From: a phage
Direction: 5' to 3' (one strand)
Sequence record: PV467749.1
Length of the DNA stretch: 64,000 nucleotides
Shown here: positions 26,322 to 49,284 of the stretch, in pieces
Numbering within the stretch: the first letter of the stretch is position 1
Layout: every line of letters starts with the position of its first letter
The notes under the pieces: model-generated
What the model saw: only the letters and a program-made list of their open reading frames with translations
Database searches by the model: none
Told to the model about the DNA's origin: nothing
Translations under genes and position numbers: made by a program

Positions 26322-26325
<4 letters not shown>

Positions 26326-26486: not shown

Positions 26487-26647
<161 letters not shown>

Positions 26648-26649
26648 GG

Positions 26650-26750
<101 letters not shown>

Positions 26751-26754
26751 ATTT

Positions 26755-26870
<116 letters not shown>

Positions 26871-27621: not shown

Positions 27622-27970
<349 letters not shown>

Positions 27971-33525: not shown

Positions 33526-34099
33526 TATTATCCTTCAATGTGTAGTGTAGTACATCTAAAAAGTTATACATTGATTCATTACGCATAACCTTGATTGTTA
33601 AATTACCACAACCCAACATACGTTTGAGGCGACGCTTCACAGCAGTTAAATCATGAGAACTATTTGTGTACAGACCATTAACCTGACCCGGAACAGTAGG
33701 AACATGAAGAATGTAATCATAATTCATTAGTAAGCGTTGATTATATTTCTTTAATGCTTGCTTGTATTCTGAAATATTTTCAAAGAATGTACAATAACGG
33801 TCGTAACGATTCATTTTATTCAAAATTGAAATACGAAAAGCGTTACCACTATTCCAATCATCTTCAGTTGGGTTTGGGTTGATATGTGCCATGTTAGCTG
33901 TACTATACCCACCACTTGTGAAAACTTCAGAATATCCATTCTCAAAAACATACAATGTTGCTTTGTGTCCTCGGAATTCTTTACGGTACTTTGACAGAAC
34001 TTGAATGTGATTACGCTTGGACTTGTACATTTCGTAACCTTCATAATCGCCACTGAATTCACAAATTTTATCAACACCAGCCATTTCGTATATCCTCAT
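33512..34099 (-). CDS. hypothetical protein
   Basis: 195-aa ORF. Confidence 0.5.
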   Translation of the reverse strand: MRIYEMAGVDKICEFSGDYEGYEMYKSKRNHIQVLSKYRKEFRGHKATLYVFENGYSEVFTSGGYSTANMAHINPNPTEDDWNSGNAFRISILNKMNRYDRYCTFFENISEYKQALKKYNQRLLMNYDYILHVPTVPGQVNGLYTNSSHDLTAVKRRLKRMLGCGNLTIKVMRNESMYNFLDVLHYTLKDNNGND

Positions 34100-34617
34100 T
34101 TGATTAATATAGGAGTATTATACATACTCCATTTTCATGTGTCAAGCTTTATAATACGGAAGACTTTTCACTAAAGATTCTGACGTATTATTTTTTACCC
34201 ATGTACTACCGTTGTCATTGGATACATATCCAGTACCATTAACAAACTTACGCATAATACCAGTAAAAATATTAGTATACACCATTACTCAGTATCCTTT
34301 GGTTTAGAATGTAAACCATACTTTTCATCATAACGATCATAGGTAGTGCCATTAGTACTAGCTTTGATGCTTTCGGTGCGATTGATTGGTTCGATTTTGA
34401 CACCACGATAACCAATCTCTTCTTTAAATTGTTCCCATGATTCACGTAGACTCATTTTAGTCCCCTTTTTGTTATTTCATACACTCACGTAGGTCAATCT
34501 TTTCAACTGAACCACCGAGTACTAGATAGTGAAAATTAGAATCTTTGTTTGCCATATTCAAAAGATCTGCTTTCTGTTGAAGCGTAAAGCGTGAAGTACT
34601 GTTACGTACTGGCATAG

Positions 34618-35061
34618 TTACTCCTTAAAGTAGATATCACGAATTTGCTTAATCATCTCTAACTCTTGAAGTCCTATCATACCAAAGTTTTCTTGAACTG
34701 TCAACTGTTGGAAGTACATTTCCTCTAAATTATTATAAGGAATATCCACTAATGATAAAGGTACTCGTTCTTCACTGAATGCCAGATCTTCAACTAAATG
34801 TTTTATAATCATAACAGTAAATGAATCTTTTTGTATATGAAATTTGTAAAACGTTTGGTTAGTAGTGAACATTGTGTTTGATGGATGGAAACCCATTTCG
34901 ACAAATACTGTATCTTTATCATTATGTGTGCAATATGTACATCTTGAATTCGCAAGAACTTTAGATTTTGGGTAATAAAAATCACCCAGCAACTTCTGTC
35001 GTTTCCAGTCCTCATATACAACTGGATGCTTAACCTTCTTCAATCGGTGCAGTACTGTCAT
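34618..35061 (-). CDS. FQxS-motif paralog family protein
   Basis: C-terminal LEEMYFQQLTVQE. Confidence 0.5.
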   Translation of the reverse strand: MTVLHRLKKVKHPVVYEDWKRQKLLGDFYYPKSKVLANSRCTYCTHNDKDTVFVEMGFHPSNTMFTTNQTFYKFHIQKDSFTVMIIKHLVEDLAFSEERVPLSLVDIPYNNLEEMYFQQLTVQENFGMIGLQELEMIKQIRDIYFKE

Positions 35062-35441
35062 AGTTTTTTCCAGTCCAATGAATCGAAATCGATTTGTTCA
35101 GGGTTATCAACAGCGACAACTCGTGCATTATGAAGAGTTTCAAAGTAGCCGTTCCACGGTGTTCGTAATGGAACTGTCACATCACCAACTTTAACCAAGA
35201 ATGAATATGCTGGTGATATTGGGTCAAACCACTCTTTTTGTTTAGCATTTTCGACGATGGTTTCGTGTTCTTTTGTATAGCAATTATCTTGCTTCATATA
35301 AAACACCCAATGCTCTTTTAGGCACTGTAAAGCAGCAACTGCTTCCTCTTTAGAAGACCATTGAATATCAATTGTATTAAGAACGTCATAACAATTTTCA
35401 GTATCACCTGTAGTGTAATGTACTTCAATGCAGTATTTCAT
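35058..35441 (-). CDS. hypothetical protein
   Basis: 127-aa ORF. Confidence 0.5.
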   Translation of the reverse strand: MKYCIEVHYTTGDTENCYDVLNTIDIQWSSKEEAVAALQCLKEHWVFYMKQDNCYTKEHETIVENAKQKEWFDPISPAYSFLVKVGDVTVPLRTPWNGYFETLHNARVVAVDNPEQIDFDSLDWKKL

Positions 35442-35896
35442 TATTCATCACCTTTTAGTAATTTACAAATTTCAATCATATGATAATAACATGTATTCCA
35501 AAATTGCCCATTAGTACTACCAACATCATGCACAGTACTTTGTTGGAAAACATATTCATCATTGAACAACTTTTTAATGTCATCAATGTAAAATTCTGGT
35601 TTTGAATCATTATTGTATTCAATACTCGTTTCACCATCTGGATCAAGTGAAATTGATGATATGTCGTGAATTCCTATCGGATTTGTTGGACAAATTCTCA
35701 ACGTAAGAGGATAGAAGTCTGGATCGGTTTCATATGTATATCCGATTATGTAATTACCATCTCCAGTGATTGAGTTATATTTAAATTTAGGTTCAAATAC
35801 ATTATGGACATTATAACCTAGTTTATTCATCTCGTTAAGATGTAATAATATTTTATGTAAAGTCCCTAAGACATGAATCAAATTATCAATTTTCAT
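35441..35896 (-). CDS. FQxS-motif paralog family protein
   Basis: C-terminal NDEYVFQQSTVHD. Confidence 0.5.
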   Translation of the reverse strand: MKIDNLIHVLGTLHKILLHLNEMNKLGYNVHNVFEPKFKYNSITGDGNYIIGYTYETDPDFYPLTLRICPTNPIGIHDISSISLDPDGETSIEYNNDSKPEFYIDDIKKLFNDEYVFQQSTVHDVGSTNGQFWNTCYYHMIEICKLLKGDE

Positions 35897-36435
35897 TTAC
35901 GATCCTTTGAAAAGTTCAGTTTAAAAGATTTACCAAATTCCATTGTAGCTTTACCCAGATTGTTAATATTTTCTTTCAACATTTCTTGCATTTTTCTCAC
36001 ACTTTCATTCCAGGCTTCCTCTTCTTTACGGAGGATTGGTCGCAATCGTTCCTGAATATCGTTAAAACGTGTATTGAGTTCAACCAATGATTCATATGTG
36101 AAATCTTTCATGTCGATGATAGTACTTCGTTGAAAGAATTCTTCTTCGGATAAATTACTCAAAATGATTTTATCACTACCAATAGATAATGTCAATTCAT
36201 CATCTTGATTTTTTTTAATTACAATACGTACAGGTGATTTTATAGTAATGTGAACATCATGATTATTAAAAGTTTCAGTTTTGTTTGACGTTCTGAATTG
36301 TAGTCTTCCGGTTAGTGCGTGTACTGGCATTGGGTTCTTTTTACCAGTAATAACATCTTCCCACGAATCAAGGATATTATTAATAATTTTAACATAAGGA
36401 ACTGTCATATATGCACCTATGAAAAATCCACGCAT
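35893..36435 (-). CDS. FQxS-motif paralog family protein
   Basis: C-terminal SEEEFFQRSTIID. Confidence 0.5.
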   Translation of the reverse strand: MRGFFIGAYMTVPYVKIINNILDSWEDVITGKKNPMPVHALTGRLQFRTSNKTETFNNHDVHITIKSPVRIVIKKNQDDELTLSIGSDKIILSNLSEEEFFQRSTIIDMKDFTYESLVELNTRFNDIQERLRPILRKEEEAWNESVRKMQEMLKENINNLGKATMEFGKSFKLNFSKDRK

Positions 36436-36450
36436 AGCGTGGATCTGTAA

Positions 36451-36981
36451 TTAATCGAGTATAGTAACTTCAATCAAACGAATTTCGATGAATTCGTTTT
36501 CAGTTTCCCATGATGAACCTAATTTCTTATTAAGTTCAGTTTTAACATCACTTTTAAATTTTCCCATAGTATTAGGAATAATTTGTTTGGTTAGTTTGTC
36601 ATAACCACAATAAAACATAGGTTTCTCCCTTCGAGATATTAGCTCAACAAAATCCTTTGGATATGCAGGTATATTATGCATCACTTCATGAATGCACTCA
36701 GTACTTGAATCTTGTACTTTGTACATTACATTAAGTTTACCTTTGAAAGTTCTAATCATATCAACAATAATACCTTTACCAGATTTAAGTAAAGTTCCAT
36801 TCTTTGTATGAGAACAATAGAATACCTCATCACCAATATTAGGATAGTACAAATTAAATTCTAATTCTTCCTTTGATGACTGACGTTGAAATTTCATTAC
36901 ACGTTCAGTATAGGTGGGGTAGTTCTTCATGTTCAAAAGAATATCTCTCTTAGTAAGTGTGATATAACTGGCATAGTCCAT
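36451..36981 (-). CDS. hypothetical protein
   Basis: 176-aa ORF directly downstream of methyltransferase; no Vsr-type motifs seen. Confidence 0.5.
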   Translation of the reverse strand: MDYASYITLTKRDILLNMKNYPTYTERVMKFQRQSSKEELEFNLYYPNIGDEVFYCSHTKNGTLLKSGKGIIVDMIRTFKGKLNVMYKVQDSSTECIHEVMHNIPAYPKDFVELISRREKPMFYCGYDKLTKQIIPNTMGKFKSDVKTELNKKLGSSWETENEFIEIRLIEVTILD

Positions 36982-38822
36982 CCATTCCCAAGCATTTTGT
37001 ATGCTTGTGTCTTACTAGACACTTTAAAGAAATCTACAGGAATACCCTGTAATTTACAACATTCTACTACACTTAAGTGTCTATAGTCAATATTTCTTTT
37101 ACCATTCTCCAATAGATATTGACGATTAATCGTTGGGTCACGAAACACCAACTGTCGTCTTGATTTATTAAAGTACTGGTTACAATCACCACCCTTAAAA
37201 TAGTTAGCATCTATACAGTACGAAGCGGTTCTGTCAGTGTACCAACCATCTTCAATGATATCTTGAAGTTTAGGGGCATTTGATAATGCAGGTGGTATAA
37301 AAAGCTTATCAGTACTGCACCAGTAGTATCTCTGCCTGAAGTGAGGCGTATAATGCTGGGAATTTATCAGTACTGGTGTCATCTCAAGAACACTATTAAT
37401 GTATTGCTTGAAATCTTCTTTCATCTTAACATTCTCAAAGAGAACTTTCAAGTTAGGATTTAAACTTTTTATGTGTTGGTAGATATCAACCATCGTGTGA
37501 AACAACATTCCACGTGGGTCATTTATACCACCCTGTTTACCAGCAACTGACCATGCTTGACAATTGTGAACAACTATATTATTTGCAGTGTACGTGTTAT
37601 CAACAGCAACTTCAAAATTATATACAGTTTTCCATTCTCCAGTATGAGTGCTAGTTTTTACACCTTTAACCCACGAATAATTTTTGTCATAAAAAGCTTC
37701 CTCTTTTTTCGGTTGGTCTTTTTTATATGACAAAACATAATAAGGTTTTTGGTTAACAACTCGATTTTCAATAACTTTGGTATTCTCTGGTTGAGTATAG
37801 CTTATATTGGAATGCCTTCCATATACGTTCATTATCAATTGTTGAATACCCAATACACAGTTTATTGATGTTGTAGTGAATTTATAACATCCACTATCAA
37901 TATGTCCATCAGCGTCAAAGTAACCATCAAGAAATGCTTTTTGGTTTTTTATGCATTCCGTGAATAGTTCTGGGTGTACTTGTTTGTTAGAAGCACCCTT
38001 TCCCATTTGTTCACAAAATTCAACCAGATCTTTTGAACATATATAAAATTTATATGAAGTTCTTTCTTTAACATAATTATATTTCATATTCATACCATCA
38101 AAACATGAAACTAATTCATTAAATTCGTCATGTGCACAACAGATGAAAACTCTATATTGGTAACTATTGGTTCTATTGTTACGTTTTACTTTATATGTCC
38201 ATCCATCACCCATAAAGCGACCCATAAAATACCAGAATTTTTCATCTTTCGTTGATTTGTTAGATTCAACTGATTTAACATTACACAGAAAATGGTCATA
38301 TGTCAAATCATGTGCCTCTACCCATTCTGGTTCAGAAAAATGACGTTCATATTGTCTAATGTTGTTATTCCACATAGACGTCATTTTTCTTGAATAAAAG
38401 GGATGATTATCGGTACATTCAATTGGAAGGTGACCTTGACCTGTAATAATACGAGTGGGAGCATTTTTAACACCAGTACTCAAAACTGGATGATATTTAC
38501 CAGTATGTGTCAGTACCATGTCACCAACTTGAATGTCTTTTATATCTTTATGACCTTTGTCTGTCATAATCATGGTTCCTGCTGGGAAGCATGGAAATCC
38601 ACCCATTAATAAATCTATTTTATCCCACTCAATATCCCATTCTCTCCATTTAGTTACATCACCCAATTGGGTGATATCAGGAAAGTTAGCTTGAGATTCA
38701 GCTATTGCGTACTTGTCAATTTCGGATGAATAATATTTTTCAACAGGGATACCAGCATCTTTTAATGCCATGTATCCAACACTCATCCCATTAAAAAGAG
38801 ATAGTACTCTGATAGGTTTCAT
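36933..38822 (-). CDS. DNA (cytosine-5)-methyltransferase, intein-containing
   Basis: Motif I LFNGMSVG; motif IV split as GGFP / CQAWSVAGK by a 343-aa insertion; motif VI LFENV downstream. Confidence 0.75.
   Translation of the reverse strand: MKPIRVLSLFNGMSVGYMALKDAGIPVEKYYSSEIDKYAIAESQANFPDITQLGDVTKWREWDIEWDKIDLLMGGFPCFPAGTMIMTDKGHKDIKDIQVGDMVLTHTGKYHPVLSTGVKNAPTRIITGQGHLPIECTDNHPFYSRKMTSMWNNNIRQYERHFSEPEWVEAHDLTYDHFLCNVKSVESNKSTKDEKFWYFMGRFMGDGWTYKVKRNNRTNSYQYRVFICCAHDEFNELVSCFDGMNMKYNYVKERTSYKFYICSKDLVEFCEQMGKGASNKQVHPELFTECIKNQKAFLDGYFDADGHIDSGCYKFTTTSINCVLGIQQLIMNVYGRHSNISYTQPENTKVIENRVVNQKPYYVLSYKKDQPKKEEAFYDKNYSWVKGVKTSTHTGEWKTVYNFEVAVDNTYTANNIVVHNCQAWSVAGKQGGINDPRGMLFHTMVDIYQHIKSLNPNLKVLFENVKMKEDFKQYINSVLEMTPVLINSQHYTPHFRQRYYWCSTDKLFIPPALSNAPKLQDIIEDGWYTDRTASYCIDANYFKGGDCNQYFNKSRRQLVFRDPTINRQYLLENGKRNIDYRHLSVVECCKLQGIPVDFFKVSSKTQAYKMLGNGWTMPVISHLLREIFF
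37563..38591 (-). mobile_element. intein with LAGLIDADG homing-endonuclease domain
   Basis: Starts CFPAGTMIMTDKG (block A), TDNHPF (block B), two LAGLIDADG-like motifs (FMGRFMGDGW, LDGYFDADGH), ends VVHN followed by Cys. Confidence 0.7.
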
Positions 38823-38874
38823 ATAAAATCCTTTTTATATTGTTAAGGTACTATAATACATTATAGCATCTTAT

Positions 38875-39165
38875 TTAGAAATCTTCCAGACTTTTTTCAT
38901 CGCACCATCGAGAAGTACAGATGATCGCAGATGCAAGAATTGAAGCACTGGCTCGACCACCACCAAGTAAGTACTGGCTAATGACACCAATCATATTGAA
39001 GACTTTATCATACTCAGCAAGGAGTTCAAAATCCTTCTTCCAACATTGATATTCTTCTTCAGTAACATTAAACTCATCACCAAGTTCATTTAAAATCTTT
39101 TTAAGTACTGCACGATGTTCACTCATCTGATTCCCCATATCGTTCGTCGTAAAAATCATCATCAC
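38875..39165 (-). CDS. hypothetical protein
   Basis: 96-aa ORF. Confidence 0.4.
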   Translation of the reverse strand: MMMIFTTNDMGNQMSEHRAVLKKILNELGDEFNVTEEEYQCWKKDFELLAEYDKVFNMIGVISQYLLGGGRASASILASAIICTSRWCDEKSLEDF

Positions 39166-39204
39166 GGTCCAATGGTTCTTTTGGTTTTTCTGCCATATAT
39201 TTCC

Positions 39205-39465
39205 TCACATGGTAAATGTATTATCACCATCCATATCTTCATCTGTAGCTTCAGCTAAGGTCTTAATCGTTAGCAATTCACGCTTCACGTACAACATGAA
39301 GACCTTTTCATAATTACCGAACATCATCTCAGGTGACATGTAATTCTCCGTTACAATGACGATTGGACGGCCCTGTGACAGCATACGAAACATAGTACGG
39401 TATTTGTCAAAGGTGCGAAATTCATCCATGTTCATCATGTGGCGTTTACGAACTACTTTAGTCAT
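39205..39465 (-). CDS. hypothetical protein
   Basis: 86-aa ORF. Confidence 0.4.
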   Translation of the reverse strand: MTKVVRKRHMMNMDEFRTFDKYRTMFRMLSQGRPIVIVTENYMSPEMMFGNYEKVFMLYVKRELLTIKTLAEATDEDMDGDNTFTM

Positions 39466-39479
39466 TTTGATACCTTTAG

Positions 39480-39935
39480 TTAATTGAACTCGATTTCTGG
39501 ATAATGATTATAGAACATCTCACGTACTGCGTCAAGCTGTTCTTTAAATTTCTCAATGTCATCAAGAGTTAGTACAGTGTTACTAACTGTACTCAACTGA
39601 AAAAGTGCCTCTTCAGTACTGTTTTCTGATAAATCAAATGTACATGATGAATCATCTGTTATAATATTATCACATATTTCAAATGTGTCAATATGAACAT
39701 CATTGAGTAGATCACCACTATAATCATTATATATGAACACAAAAATGTATGATGGTTTTTTTATCTCAGTTTCTGACTCATAGGCTACTAAATCATATGT
39801 TACGTAACATTTAAAGTCAGGTGAATCGTATTCCATAGATACAATTCCTATATCACGATATTGATTCGCTTCACTGATTAAATCCGGTATAGGTGTAATA
39901 CTAAGTAAATGGAAAAACTGTCCTGGATTTAGCAT
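39480..39935 (-). CDS. FQxS-motif paralog family protein
   Basis: C-terminal STEEALFQLSTVSN. Confidence 0.55.
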   Translation of the reverse strand: MLNPGQFFHLLSITPIPDLISEANQYRDIGIVSMEYDSPDFKCYVTYDLVAYESETEIKKPSYIFVFIYNDYSGDLLNDVHIDTFEICDNIITDDSSCTFDLSENSTEEALFQLSTVSNTVLTLDDIEKFKEQLDAVREMFYNHYPEIEFN

Positions 39936-40384
39936 TTGATTACCTTCGGGTTTTGCTCTGTGATATCAAACATAGATAGAACGAAATCATTTAGCTTTTC
40001 AACACAATTGATTATAGTGCTTAAATCAGAATAACTAACTGTTAAATTTTTAACAAGAGATTCCTGAAAGTATCCTTCTTCAGTTGAGCAATAACTCACA
40101 TTTGAGATAGTCTCATAATGTATATCTTTGCTTGTTTTACATGTTATAATTTCTATTATATCCGATGTTGTGTTATATAATAATATAAATGTTGTTGTTC
40201 GTGAATTCTTATTGTAAAATGCGAGTTCAGTGCTGTCATATGTTTTCTCAATAAGAACATTGTACTCTTCCGAAAACGATGTGGAAATTCTAATTATCTC
40301 TTCTGGATCAGGAACATAAGAGCCATCAAATTTACAAGACAATGCAATTTCAAAATGATTTTTTATTTCATCAATTTTCATCAT
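39929..40384 (-). CDS. FQxS-motif paralog family protein
   Basis: C-terminal STEEGYFQESLVKN. Confidence 0.55.
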   Translation of the reverse strand: MMKIDEIKNHFEIALSCKFDGSYVPDPEEIIRISTSFSEEYNVLIEKTYDSTELAFYNKNSRTTTFILLYNTTSDIIEIITCKTSKDIHYETISNVSYCSTEEGYFQESLVKNLTVSYSDLSTIINCVEKLNDFVLSMFDITEQNPKVIKC

Positions 40385-40776
40385 AGCTCACCATTTAATT
40401 TGCTATTTACATATTCTAATGCTTTTTTAACAATGCCAATTTCGGTAACTCCTATTACATTTTTCTCGATTAACGACAATTGAAATAGTTCATCTTCCTC
40501 AATATCAATACTATGGGTTCTTGACCAATAAACGTTGAAGTCATATGCATATCGTATTGTATTTTCTTTAATATCAAGTACCAATATAACCATACCATTG
40601 TGTAGGTATGTCAGTGTTTTTCCGTATATATTAAAAATTAACCTATCTGGTGTACCCAATGGAAGATGAATTATATTTTGTGTAGTTCCAACAATAACAA
40701 AATCATTATCTATATTTTTATTCAAGTCACCTAGAATGTCATATATAGTAGTCATGTTAATCTTGACCCTCAGCAT
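40381..40776 (-). CDS. FQxS-motif paralog family protein
   Basis: C-terminal EEDELFQLSLIEK. Confidence 0.55.
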   Translation of the reverse strand: MLRVKINMTTIYDILGDLNKNIDNDFVIVGTTQNIIHLPLGTPDRLIFNIYGKTLTYLHNGMVILVLDIKENTIRYAYDFNVYWSRTHSIDIEEDELFQLSLIEKNVIGVTEIGIVKKALEYVNSKLNGEL

Positions 40777-41176
40777 TTCTGATGATTCGCATTACTTCTC
40801 TGGATACGTTGTATACTTTTTTATAGTACTCAAATGTAACTGAACCAAAATCATTAACAGTACTATCCATGAAGAACGATTCTTCGGTGCAATACACACC
40901 TGTAATTGAAACATGCTCATGATGGAATTTAGCATCTTTCCAGTAACGGAATTCGAAAATAAATTGCCCGTCATGACCAACCCTACAACACTCAGCACGG
41001 TCACTGTCTACGCAGCTAATCACAATATCCCTTTCGGAGTCATACCAGATATTTCCAATATTTGTTTCAATAACTGCATAATCAATTTTTGTAGAATTGG
41101 GAATTACACCTTTTTTTACCAGTACTAGACTGGTATTATCAATATCAAGTAAACTTACCATATCAACTCCCCACAA
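40757..41176 (-). CDS. FQxS-motif paralog family protein
   Basis: C-terminal TEESFFMDSTVND. Confidence 0.55.
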   Translation of the reverse strand: MWGVDMVSLLDIDNTSLVLVKKGVIPNSTKIDYAVIETNIGNIWYDSERDIVISCVDSDRAECCRVGHDGQFIFEFRYWKDAKFHHEHVSITGVYCTEESFFMDSTVNDFGSVTFEYYKKVYNVSREVMRIIRNAEGQD

Positions 41177-41573
41177 TTACTGTGTTTTTGATTTCTAACA
41201 ATTCACTATACATCTTCTTCAATTGTACAATATCTTCATATAAAATACCACCCATATCATCAATCAAAGAACGTTGGAATAGTGATTCATCTGACTGTAT
41301 CGTGTCCAAATCAGAAATTTTCAATACTGTAACTGGGTTTAGGGTGTTTACAATAAGTTTGTTTGTGTATGGGATGTATGTGATCTTGATATTCATTTCC
41401 GAATCAAGGGCATACAACCTCAAAACAGACAAATCACCACAAAGTTGGATTTTTGGTTCATCAAACTCATCAGACCACCACATAGTACTAGTCATATAAT
41501 TGACGTGTTGGTTCAAATGTGATATATCCAAATCGAAATAATATTTTAGTTCATTGTGTAAATCTAAACTCAT
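41163..41573 (-). CDS. FQxS-motif paralog family protein
   Basis: C-terminal SDESLFQRSLIDD. Confidence 0.55.
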   Translation of the reverse strand: MSLDLHNELKYYFDLDISHLNQHVNYMTSTMWWSDEFDEPKIQLCGDLSVLRLYALDSEMNIKITYIPYTNKLIVNTLNPVTVLKISDLDTIQSDESLFQRSLIDDMGGILYEDIVQLKKMYSELLEIKNTVIVGS

Positions 41574-41628
41574 AAATTTATCCTCTATGCATCATTATCT
41601 TACAGTGTAGGATAAACCCACGATAATG

Positions 41629-42024
41629 TCAAGATGTGAATTGCTCATACCAGTGATACAGTTCTTTTAATTCTTCAGTACTGAATAGAACATCTTCAAT
41701 CGTTGTTTGTTGGAAGTGGTAATCTTCATTTAAGTACATTGAAATATTTTTATATACTTTTCGATTACATTTCCCAAGAAATGATGTTCTTTTGGATGTA
41801 TATTCAATAAATGTTAACTTATCTAATTCTACATCCAATGACAATTTCATACAGTATTCAGTATCATCTACGTACATAAGTTTATTTGAATAACAATCAA
41901 CTGTGATATATTCTTTATGTGAGAATTGGTATATACCATTAAATTTTTTACCATTTGTACTTCTGAATTTTTCAAGGTAATAAGAGAGTGGTTTAGATAT
42001 TGTACTACCAATAGTATTATTCAT
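41629..42024 (-). CDS. FQxS-motif paralog family protein
   Basis: C-terminal NEDYHFQQTTIED. Confidence 0.55.
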   Translation of the reverse strand: MNNTIGSTISKPLSYYLEKFRSTNGKKFNGIYQFSHKEYITVDCYSNKLMYVDDTEYCMKLSLDVELDKLTFIEYTSKRTSFLGKCNRKVYKNISMYLNEDYHFQQTTIEDVLFSTEELKELYHWYEQFTS

Positions 42025-42044
42025 AGAACCTCAAAATTTAGACA

Positions 42045-42069
42045 AGAAAAATGCCCCGAAGGTCGGGGC
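42045..42069 (-). terminator. rho-independent terminator
   Basis: Hairpin GCCCCGA-CCTT-CGGGGC followed by T-run on minus strand. Confidence 0.55.
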
Positions 42070-42181
42070 AGTACGAAAAAGATTTTGTACGAAAAAGGGG
42101 AATAATACAATAAAATAATAACGCATCATTATTATGTAAGGGAGGAAAGTAACATGATAATGTTAACCATTACTGGTATAA

Positions 42182-42733
42182 TTATTTATCATTTAATTCT
42201 TTTAATTGAGCTTGTATATCACCAGAAAGTTTACGGATTTTCTTGAAACAGTACACGCTATCATCAAGTTCAAGTTCTAGGCCGTGTGTGATTGCATAAA
42301 GCATTTCAGCAAGTACTAGATCCTGACGCATCCAGTTACCATTCTTATAGGTTGTCATTACACAATAAGGACAGTGGCTGTTTCCGGTTTGTTTACCCAA
42401 GAACACAGATTGGATTGTATCATGCTTGAAACCCACAAAAGATTGGTTGATCTTGTTGATTTCAGCTACTACGTCCATTTGTGCACCAGTGTTGATTGCA
42501 AACACTTGGTCACCGTTCTCGGTTTTGTTAATGTTTAGTTCAATATCACTACCAAGTTTACGAACAGCCAATGTATAAAGTAGGATTTCATACATATCAT
42601 AATTGGTTGTTTCGCCATTTGGTGCAGTTACATCGAGACTAACACCATGCATTTTAACTTCAGTACTGAATCCATCTTTATCTGCTAGAAAATCAGTGAT
42701 TTGTTCAGTTAGGATTTTAATTTGGTCAATCAT
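42182..42733 (-). CDS. hypothetical protein
   Basis: 183-aa ORF interrupting the paralog array. Confidence 0.5.
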   Translation of the reverse strand: MIDQIKILTEQITDFLADKDGFSTEVKMHGVSLDVTAPNGETTNYDMYEILLYTLAVRKLGSDIELNINKTENGDQVFAINTGAQMDVVAEINKINQSFVGFKHDTIQSVFLGKQTGNSHCPYCVMTTYKNGNWMRQDLVLAEMLYAITHGLELELDDSVYCFKKIRKLSGDIQAQLKELNDK

Positions 42734-42752
42734 TATTCATATCCTTATGTTG

Positions 42753-42780
42753 GAAAAAGCCCCCATTACGGAGGCTTTTG
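42753..42780. terminator. rho-independent terminator (bidirectional-like)
   Basis: Hairpin AGCCCCC-ATTAC-GGAGGCT flanked by A-run and T-run. Confidence 0.5.
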
Positions 42781-42789
42781 TTAATCTAA

Positions 42790-43218
42790 TTATAGGGAAG
42801 CTTCGTATTCAGCTACAATGTCAACCATCTCATTGACAAAGTTGATGTGGTCATGAGTTACGGTACGGAAATCATAAACCAGTGATTGTTGGAAGAATAC
42901 GTCTTCAGCCAGATTACCTTCAAAGTTCAGGTCGATGTTTTCTTCATCGTTGGTTGGAGCAACTTTGATATTTAGTTGATTTTCATCAACGACCAATTTC
43001 ACTACACAACCCAATGCAATCGCCAGTACATAGGCAGGTTTCTTAGCTGCTTCAGAACGGAATGGAGCACGTAGTGCACAAATGGTGCTGCTAATCTCAT
43101 CATTCAGTTCTTTATATTTAACGTTAATCATCAGTTCTTCAATTTTGACGCTCTCGATTACACGACCAGTTTCAGCAGCGAAGAAAGAGTGGTTACGGAT
43201 AGTTTGTTCGATATTCAT
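42790..43218 (-). CDS. FQxS-motif paralog family protein
   Basis: C-terminal AEDVFFQQSLVYD. Confidence 0.55.
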   Translation of the reverse strand: MNIEQTIRNHSFFAAETGRVIESVKIEELMINVKYKELNDEISSTICALRAPFRSEAAKKPAYVLAIALGCVVKLVVDENQLNIKVAPTNDEENIDLNFEGNLAEDVFFQQSLVYDFRTVTHDHINFVNEMVDIVAEYEASL

Positions 43219-43221
43219 GTG

Positions 43222-43416
43222 TTATTCCTTATATAGATTGCTAAAGTTACGAAGATTACGGTTTGCTTTAAACTGTTTTAAATCACCAAATCTATCATCA
43301 ACGATAAAAGTGGCAGACTGTTTTGATTGGCATATTGTACAAATCAACATACCCTGTATTGTATACTCGGTTGAACAATTTGTACAGTACTTTTTTTCAT
43401 AAAGTTCAGTACTCAT
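43222..43416 (-). CDS. small zinc-ribbon protein
   Basis: CTNC...CTIC Cys pairs in 64 aa. Confidence 0.4.
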   Translation of the reverse strand: MSTELYEKKYCTNCSTEYTIQGMLICTICQSKQSATFIVDDRFGDLKQFKANRNLRNFSNLYKE

Positions 43417-43748
43417 AAAACCTTCACATCACTACGTTTATCTCTTTCTTCTTTCTTTACCTCATCGGAGCGGGTATCTTCTAATTGTAACACAACTTCT
43501 TTCAGAATGTCAACATCAATCATTGCTTCTTTGTATTGAAAGTCGTTTACGCCGAAAATATACTTCAATGCAACCCATACACGTTTGTACCATTTTAAGA
43601 AAGGATTCAAACGCATACTCACCAGACATTGACCAAGTTTATCATCTCCATGTTCTTGTGTCAAGTCAAATTGTGAAATGTGAACACAATGTTCCGTATT
43701 ATCGCCACAACTACAACGCACTATAAATTCTTTGCTGTCTTTGCTCAT
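43413..43748 (-). CDS. hypothetical protein
   Basis: 111-aa ORF. Confidence 0.45.
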   Translation of the reverse strand: MSKDSKEFIVRCSCGDNTEHCVHISQFDLTQEHGDDKLGQCLVSMRLNPFLKWYKRVWVALKYIFGVNDFQYKEAMIDVDILKEVVLQLEDTRSDEVKKEERDKRSDVKVL

Positions 43749-44167
43749 ACTGGATAAGCCTTCATAAATTGTTTTAGAACTCCAAACTTAGAAGCACTGT
43801 AATCATACTGATAACTTAGCTCACGTTTATCATTCATTCGATAAACCATATGATTGTTTGGATAACCTATTCTAACAGGTTTGTTAGGATTTGCAAGCAA
43901 AATTGCCCATTCTTTTACAGGAAAAACGTTTTCAGATAACATCTTCACATCTTTACTGTAATACTTCATTGCTTGGGTACAGTGCTTGTAATCTTCAGCA
44001 CTCAGTTCTTCACACACAACACTGTGTGTTTCAGTACTGGATACCCATGACTCTTCTTCATAATATAAGTCAATTACATCTTCTACGGTATAGCTATCAG
44101 GTAAATCATAATATACCCAATTACTAAAACCAGAGCTTACACCAACTCGAATTCGATAGTACTTCAT
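43745..44167 (-). CDS. hypothetical protein
   Basis: 140-aa ORF. Confidence 0.5.
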   Translation of the reverse strand: MKYYRIRVGVSSGFSNWVYYDLPDSYTVEDVIDLYYEEESWVSSTETHSVVCEELSAEDYKHCTQAMKYYSKDVKMLSENVFPVKEWAILLANPNKPVRIGYPNNHMVYRMNDKRELSYQYDYSASKFGVLKQFMKAYPV

Positions 44168-44331
44168 ATTTTTTTATCATCCGATTTTACATAATAGTAA
44201 CATACAATGCAGTGAATTACAAGAAGAATAATTTCTACTACATTCAGTGCCACAACATGCCCTTGCGGGACCGTAAGTGACAATAACAACATTATAGTAG
44301 GTATTACGAATATTGTCAATGTTTTTTTCAT
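44164..44331 (-). CDS. small membrane protein
   Basis: Start placed at Met14 of ORF-track 44164..44370 (MKKTLTIFVIPTIMLLLSLTV...); upstream part is a degenerate tandem duplicate. Confidence 0.35.
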   Translation of the reverse strand: MKKTLTIFVIPTIMLLLSLTVPQGHVVALNVVEIILLVIHCIVCYYYVKSDDKKI

Positions 44332-44418
44332 TTTATTTCCTTGTGGGACCGTAAGTGACAATAACAACATTATAGTAGGTATTACGAATATTGTCCATGT
44401 TTTTTCATTTTATTTCCT
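44262..44418. repeat. tandem direct repeat, 2 x ~78 bp
   Basis: Two near-identical units differing at 2-3 positions; each contains RBS+ATG and a TTGACA/TGGACA-17-TATAAT motif on the minus strand. Confidence 0.7.
44291..44319 (-). promoter_or_regulatory. sigma-70 consensus promoter (TTGACA-17-TATAAT)
   Basis: Perfect -35 and -10 hexamers with 17-nt spacer on minus strand, inside repeat unit A. Confidence 0.5.
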
Positions 44419-44641
44419 TAATGTAGGCAAATGGTAAAAATACAACCTCTACCCCAGGAAATGCAGTTGCGAGTGCATCAACTATAGATTTGTTTTTATT
44501 ACATTGCCATACTTTTGTAACTTTGTGCTGGAATACCTTGCCATCTTTTACTAACCAATACATTTGCATTTTAACAGTACTGTTATCAGATGGTATTAGT
44601 AAATCTTCCATATCATATGAATTAAAGATTCTCTCGTTCAT
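44405..44641 (-). CDS. hypothetical protein
   Basis: 78-aa ORF. Confidence 0.4.
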   Translation of the reverse strand: MNERIFNSYDMEDLLIPSDNSTVKMQMYWLVKDGKVFQHKVTKVWQCNKNKSIVDALATAFPGVEVVFLPFAYIKEIK

Positions 44642-44900
44642 ATAATCTCCTAGTGAAAAAAGCCAGATTCTTTCTTATATATTCGGCGACACAATCAGTA
44701 GTTTGTGTATTTGTGAATGCAACAACTTCATTCGATACACCATTCCCATTACACAATGGACAAATCCCCATATACTTAGGTGTTGGAACTGTATCTAGTT
44801 TATATTTCCCTGAAGATATCATGTATTGTTGTGGTAATACATCCAAAGAAATAATATAATCTTCATCGAATTGCTTACAACATACCCAACATTTACTCAT
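44622..44900 (-). CDS. small zinc-binding protein
   Basis: CWVCC...CPLCNG Cys clusters. Confidence 0.45.
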   Translation of the reverse strand: MSKCWVCCKQFDEDYIISLDVLPQQYMISSGKYKLDTVPTPKYMGICPLCNGNGVSNEVVAFTNTQTTDCVAEYIRKNLAFFTRRLYERENL

Positions 44901-45384
44901 TGTGGTTCTCCTTCAAAACAATTCTTATATCTTCGAATGTTTTAACAAACCAGTCATGTTCATCAGATACATCAACCACCTTCCCACCATAAACATAGTA
45001 ATGGTAGAAGGGTAACTTACTTTTCCTCAATCGTTCAGCAAGTTCTGGGTTTTGAAATATCTTAGCACATATTGCATCCTGGATACGAGAAATGCATTCG
45101 GGTGTCATTTCAATACGGTCGTGCATATACTTGTTCGCCGCTGCTTTTGCAGCAGCACCCGACACTTTTCTAAGATCATCATGTTTCTGGCCTGTTAAAA
45201 ACCAAAAATAAAAAGTTTCTACCGATGGGAACCAACCGTATGGTTCTAAGGTAAAACTATGTGACGAAAAGTTAGATAGATCCCTACCTAACTTAGTTTT
45301 AGCTTTACTATAGATATTAATGTGTCTGTATCCGTCATCAGTAGGGTCAATATAGTTAAATGACTCTTCAGGAAATTCAAACAT
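44893..45384 (-). CDS. hypothetical protein
   Basis: 163-aa ORF. Confidence 0.5.
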   Translation of the reverse strand: MFEFPEESFNYIDPTDDGYRHINIYSKAKTKLGRDLSNFSSHSFTLEPYGWFPSVETFYFWFLTGQKHDDLRKVSGAAAKAAANKYMHDRIEMTPECISRIQDAICAKIFQNPELAERLRKSKLPFYHYYVYGGKVVDVSDEHDWFVKTFEDIRIVLKENHNE

Positions 45385-45386
45385 AA

Positions 45387-45740
45387 TTACTCTTCTTCAC
45401 CAGATGGTGTACCACGCAGTTTATCAAAATCAACCCAAATACCATGCTGGTTTTTGAAGCGACATTTCTCATAGTACCAGCTATAGTCGGTTTCAACACC
45501 CTGAGAAATTGAACGAACACTACAGTCATACATATTGTATAAATGTGTACGTACAATGAATGTTCCTATAAGAAGAACAAACACAACAATCCCAGTACAG
45601 ATCTTTGGATGATCCATAATTAGGTCCAACACAGAACTGGTTTCAGTACTATCAATTTTACTACGACCGATAGCAACAACTTTCAGTACTGCTAATGATA
45701 CCAGTAATGAAATAACAAGAACACTCAAATAAATTAGCAT
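45387..45740 (-). CDS. membrane protein
   Basis: 117 aa, two TM helices. Confidence 0.45.
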   Translation of the reverse strand: MLIYLSVLVISLLVSLAVLKVVAIGRSKIDSTETSSVLDLIMDHPKICTGIVVFVLLIGTFIVRTHLYNMYDCSVRSISQGVETDYSWYYEKCRFKNQHGIWVDFDKLRGTPSGEEE

Positions 45741-45742
45741 AT

Positions 45743-46327
45743 TTAGACTCCTACCCCAAAACGTAAAAGGATGTTATTAACAAACACAAAATCAAATGGA
45801 GACTTTGGTTCAGATACCGAGTACTGGAAAGTTTCAGTGGCAAAATTTTCCCTATTATGCCATGTTGATGAATCGATTAGTAATTGTTTATCACCAATTG
45901 ACGTTGAATGTAATGGGACGTGTGCTGATGAATTTATAGAATACGCATTTAGTTTTCCTTGTTCATCAAATGTAACACAAAGGTAATATCTCTTCTTAAC
46001 ATCAGGAGAACGCTCTTTAATATACGAATATATTGATTCATTCAAATCATCATCATTCCTTGTCTTAGCACCGAGAACTTGAGCAAAAGACAAATTACGT
46101 TTCGGTTGGATCGTTCCTGGTCTTTTTAGAATGAATTCTTTTGTTAAGTAAAAGTTATTGTGTTTTACCTCAATATTAACAGTTTTAAAGTTTGTGATTT
46201 TGTCATATACGTTCCTAAAAACTGTTATATCCCATGAACTAATTTCTTGCATCGTTACCGTAACTAGTTCTTCTAGTTCTTGGATAAATGGCAAATCGTC
46301 TTGATCAAATCTAATCACAGTTTTCAT
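45743..46327 (-). CDS. hypothetical protein
   Basis: 194-aa ORF. Confidence 0.5.
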   Translation of the reverse strand: MKTVIRFDQDDLPFIQELEELVTVTMQEISSWDITVFRNVYDKITNFKTVNIEVKHNNFYLTKEFILKRPGTIQPKRNLSFAQVLGAKTRNDDDLNESIYSYIKERSPDVKKRYYLCVTFDEQGKLNAYSINSSAHVPLHSTSIGDKQLLIDSSTWHNRENFATETFQYSVSEPKSPFDFVFVNNILLRFGVGV

Positions 46328-46898
46328 ATACCTTTTTTAAATTCATAATTTCAAGAAGACTATATTCTTTTTCACTAATCAAATCTTCAGTGAGTGCTTC
46401 TGGTTCGGTGTTACAATACAACTTCCCATTAATGATAACATAACCATTGCTAAGATACAACGCACTCATTATCTGTTGTCCTTCTTTTGCATTGACTGCT
46501 ATACCAGCATTTGTTACAACAAGCCCATTGTTTGCAAATGCTGATGTTAGTTCTGACCATTCAACTGATATTAAATCACGATAGTCTTTTGATACTTTTA
46601 TATTAACAATACAAGCAACTCTTGTAATAGATGGAGTACTAATCGTATACATCTGTGGGTGTTGGTAGTTTGAGTTATATGTTTGTGGTGTATTAACAGC
46701 AGTTCCTGAATTCGGAGTTGTTGGCATAATTACTTGATCTATATTTGGAACAGCCGTTCTTAGTGATGCAATACGCCCAGTTTCATCCAATTTCAAAACT
46801 AAACGATGAGTTTTATCCTCAGAGTGATACGGGAATAGACCACCGGAATTCATATTTTGAAGCATTTTAATTAATTCATAAGTATTTTTTAAAAACAT
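46311..46898 (-). CDS. hypothetical protein
   Basis: 195-aa ORF. Confidence 0.5.
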   Translation of the reverse strand: MFLKNTYELIKMLQNMNSGGLFPYHSEDKTHRLVLKLDETGRIASLRTAVPNIDQVIMPTTPNSGTAVNTPQTYNSNYQHPQMYTISTPSITRVACIVNIKVSKDYRDLISVEWSELTSAFANNGLVVTNAGIAVNAKEGQQIMSALYLSNGYVIINGKLYCNTEPEALTEDLISEKEYSLLEIMNLKKVYENCD

Positions 46899-46911
46899 AA
46901 TAAATCCTATA

Positions 46912-46936
46912 GAAAATGGGAGTACAATGTACTCCC
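46912..46936 (-). terminator. rho-independent terminator
   Basis: Hairpin GGGAGTAC-AAT-GTACTCCC followed by T-run on minus strand. Confidence 0.55.
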
Positions 46937-46945
46937 AGATTTAGA

Positions 46946-47500
46946 TTATAGTTTAATTACTTCTTGGATACCAGTATCCATTGCTTTCTTAGTGCGTGTA
47001 TCAGAAACTACTGTACATAAATGTTCAATATTTTCACTTGGGAATGTGTTAGTATCAAGAATTTTGGAGTTCCAGAAACCTTTACGGAACTTAGCATAAT
47101 CAGTACACTGGTCAATTTTCATTTTCTGAAGATTGTTGAACTGTGTACGTCCTGACTCGATAGTTACCATAAGTTCTTGATAAATCTTAGGATCGAGATT
47201 AGGAACCTGTTGTTGAATCTGTGACATCACAAACTTCTGGTCAACACCTTCACGACCTTTAAAGTATGTTTCGATGGTTTCTTTCAATGCATCCTTATAC
47301 TTATCAGAAACTTGTACTTTTTCTTGAATGACAAGAGTGTATTTACTTAGTTGACTTTCTGATGCATCATAGTACTTTTTAATATTACCTTCAAATTCAA
47401 CAGCACGGTCATGTGCATCTACATACATACTAACTGAACCAATTGCCATAAGACCGAATACAACAACAACACCAATCAATGCAATAATTTTACCATTCAT
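46946..47500 (-). CDS. membrane-anchored protein (possibly LemA-like)
   Basis: 184 aa, N-terminal TM helix then helical soluble domain; LemA similarity is only impressionistic. Confidence 0.45.
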   Translation of the reverse strand: MNGKIIALIGVVVVFGLMAIGSVSMYVDAHDRAVEFEGNIKKYYDASESQLSKYTLVIQEKVQVSDKYKDALKETIETYFKGREGVDQKFVMSQIQQQVPNLDPKIYQELMVTIESGRTQFNNLQKMKIDQCTDYAKFRKGFWNSKILDTNTFPSENIEHLCTVVSDTRTKKAMDTGIQEVIKL

Positions 47501-48591
47501 AACTTGTTATCCCTCATATAAAGGCCAATGAAAATAGATACAATCAGTAACAAAATAGAAGCACCGATGAGAACATCTTTACGTGGTTCCATTTTTACAG
47601 ACAAGTACTCGAACTCTTTATTAGAGAGTCTTTCAAACTTTGTGTCAATATTATGCACTTCTTTGCTCAACAAGTCAAGAGTTAATTTTTCATTTAATGC
47701 ATCCATTCGCATCTTAGCATGTAGTTCTTCGTTCTTCATGCCTTGTGCAAAGGAAGTGCTATCAAATTTAACAATCTTCCCATCATTATCAATTCCAAAG
47801 AACATAATAACATCATTCTTCTTACCACCACGCCACGAAGCGAGTGTTGCCTCAACAAAATCTACGTTTTTATAATCATAAACCAAAACTTGGATGTTGA
47901 CTTGTTTACGTGCACCCATAGTTTTTAGTTCTTCACGCAGATACTCATCATAACCATCTACATTATAATTAGTAGTGTTGATTACATGGTGTGTTTTATA
48001 ATAGTCTACCACACTTGGGTATTCTGGTAAAGTACTAAGATATTTCTCATCATACATTTCATGTAATTCACCAGGACTAAACAATGAGTTTTTATCAGCG
48101 AACAGATAGTTAATATAAGAACTTTCTGCGGCAGCATAATCCCCAATGTTAACCTGTTGCCAGCGTGGAGGGGTCATTGTACCCTGACGGTTTACTCGCT
48201 CAATCTCAAACTTCCCTACAGTACTTTTTACATACCAGTCAACTTCGTATGAATAATCAAATACCTTATAGGACTCACATTCACGATGGGATTTCCCCTT
48301 ACTATCATAACGAGTTCTGCATTTCTCGTGCCACGTGTAATGCTTACATGAGCTTGATTGTGTACAAAACTCCTTGTGATTATATTTGGATGTTACCTGC
48401 CCATTTAGAATCTCTACATCGTACAATTGGCTGTAGTTGATTGCATATGAGATACCAAGCACAAGAGCAGCACCAACTATACAACAACCAATATGAATCA
48501 ACAGTTCTTTAGTACTGATATGCTTATCATACATGTATTTCATAACAAATACAACGATAAGTGAAGGAATCAACAGAATAATAAAATTCAT
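47497..48591 (-). CDS. membrane protein
   Basis: 364 aa, N-terminal TM helices plus C-terminal TM helix. Confidence 0.5.
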   Translation of the reverse strand: MNFIILLIPSLIVVFVMKYMYDKHISTKELLIHIGCCIVGAALVLGISYAINYSQLYDVEILNGQVTSKYNHKEFCTQSSSCKHYTWHEKCRTRYDSKGKSHRECESYKVFDYSYEVDWYVKSTVGKFEIERVNRQGTMTPPRWQQVNIGDYAAAESSYINYLFADKNSLFSPGELHEMYDEKYLSTLPEYPSVVDYYKTHHVINTTNYNVDGYDEYLREELKTMGARKQVNIQVLVYDYKNVDFVEATLASWRGGKKNDVIMFFGIDNDGKIVKFDSTSFAQGMKNEELHAKMRMDALNEKLTLDLLSKEVHNIDTKFERLSNKEFEYLSVKMEPRKDVLIGASILLLIVSIFIGLYMRDNKL

Positions 48592-48594
48592 GTA

Positions 48595-49284
48595 TTAGTC
48601 CAGTTTAAGTTTATTGAGACAATAGGAGATTTGGATAGCTTCACGTGCTGCATCATACAGAGGGTGATGTAATTCCAAACCATTAATACCACATTTTTCT
48701 ACATACTTCACGAATTTAGCTAACTGCACTGACACAATCTCATCCATTTCGGTGCGAGCTTCTTCATTCAATAAACGCTTCAGGGTTCGTGCGTTTTCAG
48801 GAGCATCATATTTCCACAAATCACCAACATTCAATAGTTTTAAGTGATTAGCTTGTAAAATACTACAGTCGAAGTTGCAGCCATTTCCCCAAATTGAATG
48901 TTCAACCTCTTTACCATAACAATCAAAACGGATATCTTTCCAGAAATCGACAATACCATTAGAAGTAAAGATTTGTTTGGATTTACCATTAGGACCGTAC
49001 AATTCTGGTGCAACAAGTGCCATAGTACTGGCAACTTCAGCATATGCATTAGGATATTCCTTCTGACATGTATTCATCCAGAAATCCATTGCACCTGCAT
49101 CTGATTTCAGCCCAGCGTTGACTTGTGCTTGGTATGGTAACTTAACATATACAAATTGTCTGATATCATGTTCAGGTTTACTTGGAACAACTACTGCTGC
49201 ATAATTTGGAATAATAATATCATAACCAGAGTTTTCAGGAGTGCCGAGAGCTTCAATATCAACACTAACATGACGGCGTTTCAT
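48595..49284 (-). CDS. 3'-5' exonuclease, DEDDh family (T4 DexA-like)
   Basis: Exo I-like VSVDIEALG and Exo III-like HHPLYDAAREA; size close to T4 exonuclease A. Confidence 0.55.
   Translation of the reverse strand: MKRRHVSVDIEALGTPENSGYDIIIPNYAAVVVPSKPEHDIRQFVYVKLPYQAQVNAGLKSDAGAMDFWMNTCQKEYPNAYAEVASTMALVAPELYGPNGKSKQIFTSNGIVDFWKDIRFDCYGKEVEHSIWGNGCNFDCSILQANHLKLLNVGDLWKYDAPENARTLKRLLNEEARTEMDEIVSVQLAKFVKYVEKCGINGLELHHPLYDAAREAIQISYCLNKLKLD

Follow-up and report, generated by a model that had tools for sequence, protein, structure and literature searches.

A large family of small, mostly acidic proteins with one near-invariant motif in RaK2-like jumbo phages

Multigene families that combine many divergent copies with one common scaffold have been found in several groups of large viruses. 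The MGF360/505 proteins of African swine fever virus (ASFV), and the ankyrin/PRANC and BTB-kelch proteins of poxviruses, are implicated in host range and immune evasion. Among phages, T4-type hyperplastic early regions are rich in small accessory genes that diverge fast and are preceded by strong sigma-70-like early promoters, and the internal-protein (IP) loci of T4 encode diverse, mutually unrelated proteins that have one short string in common, an N-terminal cleavable targeting peptide. In phage G, a zinc ribbon has expanded to ~35 copies, which Iyer et al. termed unprecedented (PMC7824862). Published remarks on paralogs in the jumbo phages discussed here are short: RaK2 was described as containing about 10% paralogues (PMC3622015), CBB as containing 22 paralogous open reading frames (ORFs) (PMC5259590), and one sentence on 121Q mentions a large tandem family (PMC5646251). 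Here we analyze a tandem array of small genes at positions 39480-43218 of a 64,000-nucleotide stretch of phage DNA (sequence record PV467749.1; the whole stretch is referred to as the window), together with the protein family to which seven of its eight genes belong.

This family is undescribed, but it is of a kind already known, namely a lineage-specific multigene expansion in a giant virus; its distinguishing features are its scale and its invariant motif. With 45-55 copies per genome it is larger than the phage G expansion and, unlike the latter, it contains no zinc ribbon and no conserved Cys or His, as none is present in the family hidden Markov model (HMM). With the ASFV and poxvirus families it appears to share a design of dozens of divergent paralogs on one scaffold, encoded in terminal or early regions, but there is no sequence or fold relationship between them, and the hosts of these phages are bacterial. 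The T4-type early regions offer a similar likeness. The resemblance to the T4 IP loci lies in the single short string; in the present family, however, this string is predicted to form a helix near the C-terminus, within a folded domain, the members are apparently one domain, and the orthologs of the array proteins, unlike the T4 IPs, are absent from the virion proteome. In the literature on these phages, including work on paralogs, transcriptomes and toxicity screens, only one-sentence generic remarks fit the family, and no description of its motif, fold, copy number of 45-55 or clade-wide distribution was found in the literature searched. The figure of ~10% paralogues in RaK2 agrees with the share of this single family in the related phage TH47 (10.8% of 489 non-overlapping ORFs of at least 80 amino acids, aa). 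The 121Q remark (PMC5646251) probably refers to the larger cluster of the family, since no other BLAST family in TH47 exceeds 10 members.

The array consists of eight consecutive minus-strand ORFs. Seven of them carry the motif strings that an earlier note on this DNA had quoted, and their lengths (131-151 aa) agree with those given in that note. The features of the array are as follows.

39480-39935, minus strand: family member, 151 aa, motif STEEALFQLSTVSN; ortholog of phAPEC6 gp127c; HMM E-value 1.5e-16
39929-40384, minus strand: family member, 151 aa, motif STEEGYFQESLVKN; 7-nt overlap with the next gene; ortholog of phAPEC6 gp128c (49% aa identity)
40381-40776, minus strand: family member, 131 aa, motif EEDELFQLSLIEK; ATGA overlap with the next gene
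40757-41161, minus strand: family member, 134 aa (139 aa if an upstream TTG start is used), motif TEESFFMDSTVND; the protein modeled below
41163-41573, minus strand: family member, 136 aa, motif SDESLFQRSLIDD; phrog_24941; ortholog of phAPEC6 gp131c
41629-42024, minus strand: family member, 131 aa, motif NEDYHFQQTTIED; first gene past the terminator-like hairpin
42052-42070, minus strand: intrinsic-terminator-like hairpin, 8-bp stem with 6 GC pairs, followed by a T run
42182-42733, minus strand: sole non-member, 183 aa; phrog_15745 (unknown function); family HMM E-value >1, motif absent; ortholog of phAPEC6 gp133c (ratio of nonsynonymous to synonymous substitution rates, dN/dS, 0.06)
42790-43218, minus strand: family member, 142 aa, motif AEDVFFQQSLVYD; ortholog of phAPEC6 gp134c (dN/dS 0.08)

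The genes are closely packed: neighbors overlap by 7, 4 or 20 nt, one gap measures 1 nt, and Shine-Dalgarno-like sequences precede most of the genes. The hairpin lies between the 183-aa gene and the member at 41629-42024, and is predicted to divide the array into two transcription units. In annotated relatives, all array genes are labeled "hypothetical protein".

Anchored on the motif, the family yields the consensus T-E-E-x-[FYL]-F-Q-x-S-[TL]-[VIL]-x-D, in which the T is conserved in 68% of sequences, the two E residues in 95% and 89%, the F in 96%, the Q in 86% (otherwise M), the S in 94% and the D in 73%. The position of the motif is fixed. The earlier note had placed it about 35 residues from the C-terminus, and the conserved Phe is indeed found 28-46 residues from the C-terminus in the array proteins; across the family, its median distance from the N-terminus is ~100 residues and that from the C-terminus ~37. 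Chance does not account for this recurrence: among ORFs of at least 100 aa, the pattern [DE][DE]..F[QM].[ST].[VIL] is present in 15 of 82 on the minus strand and in none of the eight on the plus strand, while shuffled proteins contained it 0.03 times on average, with no more than two occurrences in any of 500 shuffles. The codons at the conserved positions are mixed (Ser, 8 AGY and 6 TCN; Phe, 9 TTT and 8 TTC; Gln, 10 CAA and 5 CAG); therefore, selection acts on the protein and not on a DNA repeat, and a DNA-repeat origin of the motif was rejected on this basis. The statement that the array proteins share almost nothing except the motif is nearly right, in that their pairwise identity is 12-25%; the family HMM nonetheless contains further conserved positions, in the strands (Y/F46, Y/F57, I59, I61, I68 and Y70). 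In the N-terminal part, similarity in sequence is close to undetectable: a leave-one-out HMM restricted to it scored above shuffled sequences in 11 of 12 cases, but narrowly. Aligning shallow ortholog profiles against each other with hhalign gave no signal at an effective sequence number of ~1.4, a depth at which full-length homology is neither proved nor disproved.

To describe the fold, a structural model of the 134-aa protein encoded at 40757-41161 was built with AlphaFold2, using an alignment of 40 paralogs plus orthologs. The resulting model has a predicted local distance difference test score (pLDDT) of 91.3 and a predicted template-modeling score of 0.85. It consists of seven antiparallel strands (residues 13-86), a helix at residues 93-102, which is exactly the motif (pLDDT about 90 in this segment), and a second helix at residues 110-130. 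A model of the protein encoded at 40381-40776 has a low pLDDT, 53.6, and was read only for the order of its elements, which is the same. A Foldseek search of the PDB with the confident model returned nothing at E<=1e-3, and in BFVD the only matches were to uncharacterized proteins of RaK2, GAP32 and PBECO4. Because the motif is fixed in position, the length range is narrow and strand residues are conserved, the members appear to share one domain, rather than being unrelated proteins onto which a motif has been grafted; the fold of this domain is as predicted for one member.

When the motif is plotted as a helical wheel, the variable positions are -1, +3 and +7 alone (counted from the [FYL] before the invariant Phe), and they lie on one stripe; the conserved positions, five of them hydrophobic, cover about two-thirds of the helix. 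This periodicity, rather than atomic coordinates, suggests that most of the motif helix is buried, with the sheet on one side and helix 2 on the other. The helix could then be a keystone lying across the sheet, with the Thr as N-cap, the Phe and aliphatic residues pointing inward, the Ser providing a small side chain, and an Asp-x-Gly closing the turn; the sheet and loops would be free to vary around it. Two known folds are worth comparing. The polo box (Plk1, Cdc5 and the Plk4 cryptic polo box) has an antiparallel beta-meander with an alpha-helix on one face, which the predicted fold may resemble, and it is a non-enzymatic module for binding proteins or peptides, a likeness that we propose for the family members as well. 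There is, however, no sequence similarity (6-13% identity) and no match to Pfam POLO_box (PF00659); the family has seven strands and two helices where the polo box has six strands and one helix, and its members are single-domain proteins of 120-170 aa, neither in tandem nor attached to a kinase. The p32/gC1qBP/Mam33 proteins, to which the family may be likened, have seven consecutive antiparallel strands followed by C-terminal helices; their surface is very acidic, and they bind multiple ligands. Nevertheless, no member matches Pfam MAM33, and the N-terminal helix is not consistent in the family.

The origin of the window is apparent from comparison with other phages. A 10-kb piece around the array matches 37 phage records, all of them jumbo myophages of E. 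coli or Salmonella with genomes of ~310-386 kb. The closest are TH47 (96.5% identity over 100% of the piece) and Ecwhy_1/WPEC3 (98.8% over 90%). The 121Q/PBECO4/phAPEC6 group comes next, at ~84%. TH47 is an Asteriusvirus, and the window matches its genome from ~137.0 kb on. By these matches, the window is DNA of an Asteriusvirus-type jumbo coliphage (121Q/PBECO4/phAPEC6 group, ~350 kb).

Within the window, the earlier estimate of about 20 motif-bearing genes is borne out by an iterated HMM search, which found 18 members at E<1e-3 plus two borderline cases. The same estimate fell short of the scale of the family, as a whole genome contains about 50. In TH47, the closest complete genome, the family HMM has 53 matches (E<0.01), all on a single strand; the BLAST families that come next in size number 10 and 7 members. 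About 30 of these TH47 genes form a second, larger cluster at 53.5-81.4 kb, beyond the region corresponding to the window; many of their products are 180-195 aa long, with longer N-termini. In the Klebsiella RaK2-like phage OU509535.1 there are 45 HMM matches, 37 of them with the strict motif. A tblastn search of the phage collection with a 37-aa consensus of the C-terminal module matched 265 places in 71 phage records, exclusively RaK2-like jumbo phages; their hosts are Escherichia, Klebsiella, Salmonella, Erwinia, Yersinia, Serratia, Pectobacterium and Cronobacter, with one Xanthomonas. On this sequence evidence, the family is a hallmark of the entire RaK2-like clade, at ~45-55 copies per genome.

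When a profile built from the 18 window members was run against 1.84 billion cluster representatives, 163 clusters (50% identity) matched at E<=1e-3, and the strict motif is present in 133 of the 146 new representatives listed (62-217 aa, including a few fragments). No cellular homologs were found among the 1.84 billion representatives; all matches traced to a genome, by tblastn against the phage collection, through named hits or on two metagenomic contigs, were in phage-like contexts, mostly those of jumbo phages. Nor were there fusions to other domains in the 163 clusters. A second profile search, of a 5.8-billion-protein collection, returned 10 proteins. One metagenomic phage contig of 113 kb carries 17-18 members within 20 kb, beside an intein-bearing cytosine methyltransferase, and another contig carries 4-5 members in tandem. 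One representative, P0099, had no tblastn match in the phage collection; part of the diversity of the family would therefore belong to unsampled phages.

The earlier note did not recognize the motif as a named domain, and searches of Pfam, NCBIfam, PADLOC and PDB sequences bear this out, all being negative, while PHROGs contains only groups of unknown function; no catalytic domain was recognized either. The best Pfam matches had E-values of 0.019-0.15, far under the cut-off; among 131 members, E<=0.01 was reached only for three unrelated families, by one member each (best E 0.003-0.009). No member matched NCBIfam or PADLOC. In PHROGs, each paralog matches its own group (30548, 30841, 36084, 24510, 24941, 33313 and 23322) with E-values of 1e-43 to 1e-76, and cross-matches to the groups of other paralogs are weak (1e-5 to 0.1). 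PHROGs splits the family into more than 20 groups, without annotation. A profile search of PDB sequences gave nothing meaningful, the sole match being through a ...LTEENYFQ... string in 3ihk. No match to anti-restriction, anti-CRISPR, anti-CBASS or anti-Thoeris proteins was found in Pfam, PHROGs, PDB sequences or BFVD, no dedicated anti-defense library having been searched. Likewise, there was no Pfam match to the immunity families of polymorphic toxins (SUKH, Imm and others), and no toxin domains were found in the neighbors.

The family was also described in the earlier note as rapidly diversifying, a claim that comparison with phAPEC6 does not support. The seven array genes have syntenic one-to-one orthologs in that phage, with 49-87% aa identity and dN/dS of 0.08-0.49, and the copy number is similar across genera (45 versus 53). 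Neighboring non-members are 70-100% identical to their phAPEC6 counterparts, with dN/dS of 0-0.27. The family evolves somewhat faster than its neighbors, under purifying selection, and no positive selection was found in the dN/dS of the array ortholog pairs. The array is also ancient, and not a fresh tandem burst, because none of its seven members has its nearest paralog inside the array; in TH47, the best paralog lies no more than two family neighbors away for 20 of the 53 members, but for none of the seven array genes. Clear, recent tandem duplicates and triads do occur elsewhere in TH47, at 69.1-72.3 kb, with 34-47% identity over their full length. Gene content is stable across the genus. 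The synonymous divergence (dS) of orthologs in 33300-48600 relative to phAPEC6 is very uneven from gene to gene, ~0.1-2.5, which suggests mosaic recombination among Asteriusvirus lineages in this region.

The expression context of the family was assessed through its promoters. Sigma-70 sites matching the consensus at no fewer than 11 of 12 positions number 37 on the coding strand of the window and none on the other, with ~2 expected; 11 of the 37 are perfect. TH47 has 109 such sites on one strand and 8 on the other, concentrated at 20-200 kb, a region that contains 50 of the 53 members. Examples from the window are listed below.

43484-43513, minus strand: sigma-70-like promoter, TTGACA-18-TACAAT, 11/12, with TG extension, upstream of the unit that runs from 43416 to 42182
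44291-44319, minus strand: further sigma-70-like promoter, 12/12
44369-44397, minus strand: further sigma-70-like promoter, 11/12
34117-34145, minus strand: other sigma-70 match, at least 11/12
32256-32285, minus strand: other sigma-70 match, at least 11/12
27498-27526, minus strand: other sigma-70 match, at least 11/12
27643-27670, minus strand: other sigma-70 match, at least 11/12

Several sigma-70 sites fall within the 3' ends of upstream genes. Published data on two relatives are also of use. The authors of the CBB genome suspected CBB_390-546 to be an early, host-takeover region (PMC5259590), and the CBB homologs CBB_398, which is beside the cytosine methyltransferase gene, and CBB_468 are both in it. 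In phAPEC6, gp127c-132c and gp134c, the orthologs of the array proteins, are absent from the 62 virion proteins found by mass spectrometry. An alternative assignment of gp167c, gp179c and gp182c as the phAPEC6 counterparts of the array was rejected, as the annotation puts the array at gp127c-gp134c.

The earlier note had called an arrangement of this kind typical of host-interaction or anti-defense modules, and as far as the setting is concerned this fits: the sigma-70 promoters are dense, the proteins are small and acidic, and the orthologs are outside the virion proteome. The reading that we prefer, with a confidence somewhat short of even, is that the members are early, non-virion, non-enzymatic, single-domain proteins of the cytoplasm that bind diverse targets of host takeover stoichiometrically, on a scaffold of a beta-meander plus two helices held together by the keystone motif. 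Host RNA polymerase would transcribe the genes from strong sigma-70-type promoters, as tightly packed and partly translationally coupled transcription units. The outcome would be a library of binders or inhibitors without enzymatic activity, expressed early and built on a common scaffold, in which each paralog would recognize a different host (or rival) macromolecule during takeover. What we infer in this proposal is that expression is early, that the motif has a structural role, that the proteins are binders and that they have host targets. Members may plausibly have an anti-defense role.

Several observations weigh against this proposal. The near-invariant polar residues E, E, Q, S and D exceed what a structural role usually needs, and hint at a shared ligand or partner. 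A stable copy number and synteny across genera and hosts argue against strain-specific targets in an arms race. Early timing is deduced from promoter consensus only, and the enrichment of sigma-70 sites is specific to the class at >=11/12, as the count at >=9/12 shows none (73 versus 63). Virion mass spectrometry is of limited sensitivity. Lastly, there is one confident model, and the burial of the motif comes from helical periodicity.

The polar residues are the starting point of an adaptor or hub-docking explanation, which we consider possible though improbable. Here the polar rim of the conserved helix, T-E-E/Q/S/D, would tie all paralogs to one partner, either a phage machine or, on the side of the host, RNA polymerase, a protease or a chaperone, for example, while the variable sheet would select the cargo, as in the F-box and SOCS-box families of eukaryotes and their viruses. 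In its favor, the polar residues are 86-95% conserved amid 12-25% identity, the family HMM has no conserved basic residue in helix 2 or the sheet that would make the Glu-Glu pair an internal salt bridge, the predicted fold may be like that of the peptide- and protein-binding polo boxes, and the position of the motif is fixed in ~50 paralogs per genome. Yet the helical wheel looks more like that of a buried helix than of a free docking surface, no candidate hub gene co-varying with the family was found, and the 163 clusters contain no domain fusions. That the invariant helix is specifically a docking module, plugging ~50 specificity domains into one host or phage machine, we rate as improbable too, and place next in order. 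In a weaker version, a polar pocket formed by Y70, E93, E94, Q98, S100 and D104 could bind one common small ligand. A further explanation, which we regard as unlikely, is that the members are immunity-like inhibitors of toxins, comparable to the tandem immunity genes in bacterial polymorphic-toxin loci, each paralog neutralizing a different effector of host abortive infection or of competing phages. The tandem layout of small alpha+beta proteins that diverge strongly on a common scaffold would suit it, as would the early type of genomic context; but no Pfam immunity family is matched, there are no cellular homologs among the 1.84 billion representatives, and gene content is stable across the genus.

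Less likely again, in our estimate, is an oligomeric acidic scaffold or mimic, in which members would form homo- or hetero-oligomers through their conserved helices, in the manner of the acidic, doughnut-shaped p32/Mam33 homotrimer or of polo-box dimers, and would serve as an intracellular structural matrix, a chaperone or a mimic of nucleic acid instead of binding specific targets. The predicted p32/Mam33-like topology, the strong acidity and the large number of co-expressed paralogs that all have a conserved, interface-like helix would fit this description, but the lack of a Pfam MAM33 match does not, nor do the members that are basic (pI 8.7-9.3). It is very improbable that the members are internal proteins packaged in the capsid, by analogy with the T4 internal proteins, with the motif as a signal for protease processing or targeting. 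A diverse family with one short conserved string would be expected in that case, E-x-x-[YF]-F-Q-x-S resembles the 3C/TEV-type (TEV, tobacco etch virus) site E-x-x-Y-x-Q|(S/G), and it was through a string of this type that 3ihk was matched. However, prohead proteases of the T4 type cleave behind Glu rather than Gln, the prediction for the motif is a helix and not an extended loop, the genes are behind sigma-70-type promoters and outside the late region, and the array orthologs are missing from the phAPEC6 virion proteome. The capsids of phAPEC6 contain an inner body (PMC7247149), which would favor packaging. A TEV-like cleavage site as such was rejected as unlikely, the motif being predicted as helical and the proteins as non-virion, and the resemblance is probably coincidental. 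Finally, the ORFs might be non-coding, or the motif might derive from a repeated DNA element or from chance. Short ORF length is all that would speak for such an artefact, which the data already refute: the motif is seen 15 times against 0.03 expected, it varies synonymously (with both AGY and TCN codons for Ser), every ortholog pair has dN/dS <0.5, one member models with high confidence, and the family is kept across genera.

Phages of the RaK2/121Q type rank with the largest in culture, and over 80% of their genes lack a known function. Roughly a tenth of the genes, and nearly all "paralogues" of earlier genome papers, belong to one family; defining it collapses ~50 "hypothetical proteins" per genome into one problem, and its motif is a diagnostic marker of the clade in metagenomes. 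If the members are early binders of host factors, as we tentatively propose, they would be a natural library of small inhibitors of enterobacterial proteins. If the motif instead docks onto a common hub, this would be a new organizing principle of phage host takeover, a phage counterpart of the F-box/SOCS-box adaptors with a tenth of the clade's genes re-targeting one machine.

Outside the array, the window contains the following members and borderline members.

35893-36435, minus strand: member, 180 aa, adjacent to the next one and, like it, on the far side of the Dcm methyltransferase gene from the array
35441-35896, minus strand: member, 151 aa
34618-35061, minus strand: member, 147 aa, motif LEEMYFQQLTVQE
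28724-29212, minus strand: member, 162 aa, motif TEEERFMLSTINP; basic C-terminal tail
28323-28727, minus strand: borderline member, HMM E-value 0.027; neighbor of 28724-29212
25727-26092, minus strand: member, 121 aa, motif TEEEYFQTSTVQE
24962-25339, minus strand: borderline, degenerate member (DEADEFQKRTV), near 25727-26092
19088-19537, 19497-19901, 19910-20386, 21056-21415 and 21408-21824, minus strand: second small array, five members
4799-5314, minus strand: isolated member, 171 aa, motif STEESVFQQSLIHN

The pI is 4.05-5.1 in 14 of the 18 window members, compared with a median of 5.7 for the other ORFs. The lowest net charge, -23, belongs to the protein encoded at 39480-39935, which has a pI of 4.05. 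The proteins encoded at 35893-36435 and 28724-29212, by contrast with the acidic remainder, have basic, helical C-terminal extensions of 40-80 aa and a pI of 8.7-9.3; the tail of the former is 80 aa long. Similar basic tails are present in a few metagenomic relatives (P0096, P0169).

The cytosine-5 DNA methyltransferase gene that adjoins the array (36933-38822, minus strand) encodes 629 aa, as against 286 aa in WPEC3 and phAPEC6, and the extra ~340 aa in the middle of the protein look like an intein. In the distant metagenomic phage L012, a 630-aa methylase at the same position (10464-12356) has matches to Hint_2 and LAGLIDADG. A cytosine methylase adjoins family members in the window, in L012 and in CBB (CBB_399). 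Four tRNA genes (Thr-TGT, Asn-GTT, Ser-GCT and Ser-TGA) are located amid members and small ORFs at 22301-26844, on the minus strand, and in the relative WPEC3 a NUMOD4/HNH endonuclease gene is found amid the tRNA genes of this region. Within the array, the 183-aa protein encoded at 42182-42733 has two weak matches, both sub-threshold: one in NCBIfam (E 0.005) to Syd, a SecY-interacting protein, and one in PADLOC (E 0.017) to PtuB. Directly upstream of the terminator-like hairpin, TTTTTCGTAC occurs twice, 16 nt apart, at 42071-42096 (minus strand); these two copies are the only ones in the window, where 0.23 would be expected.

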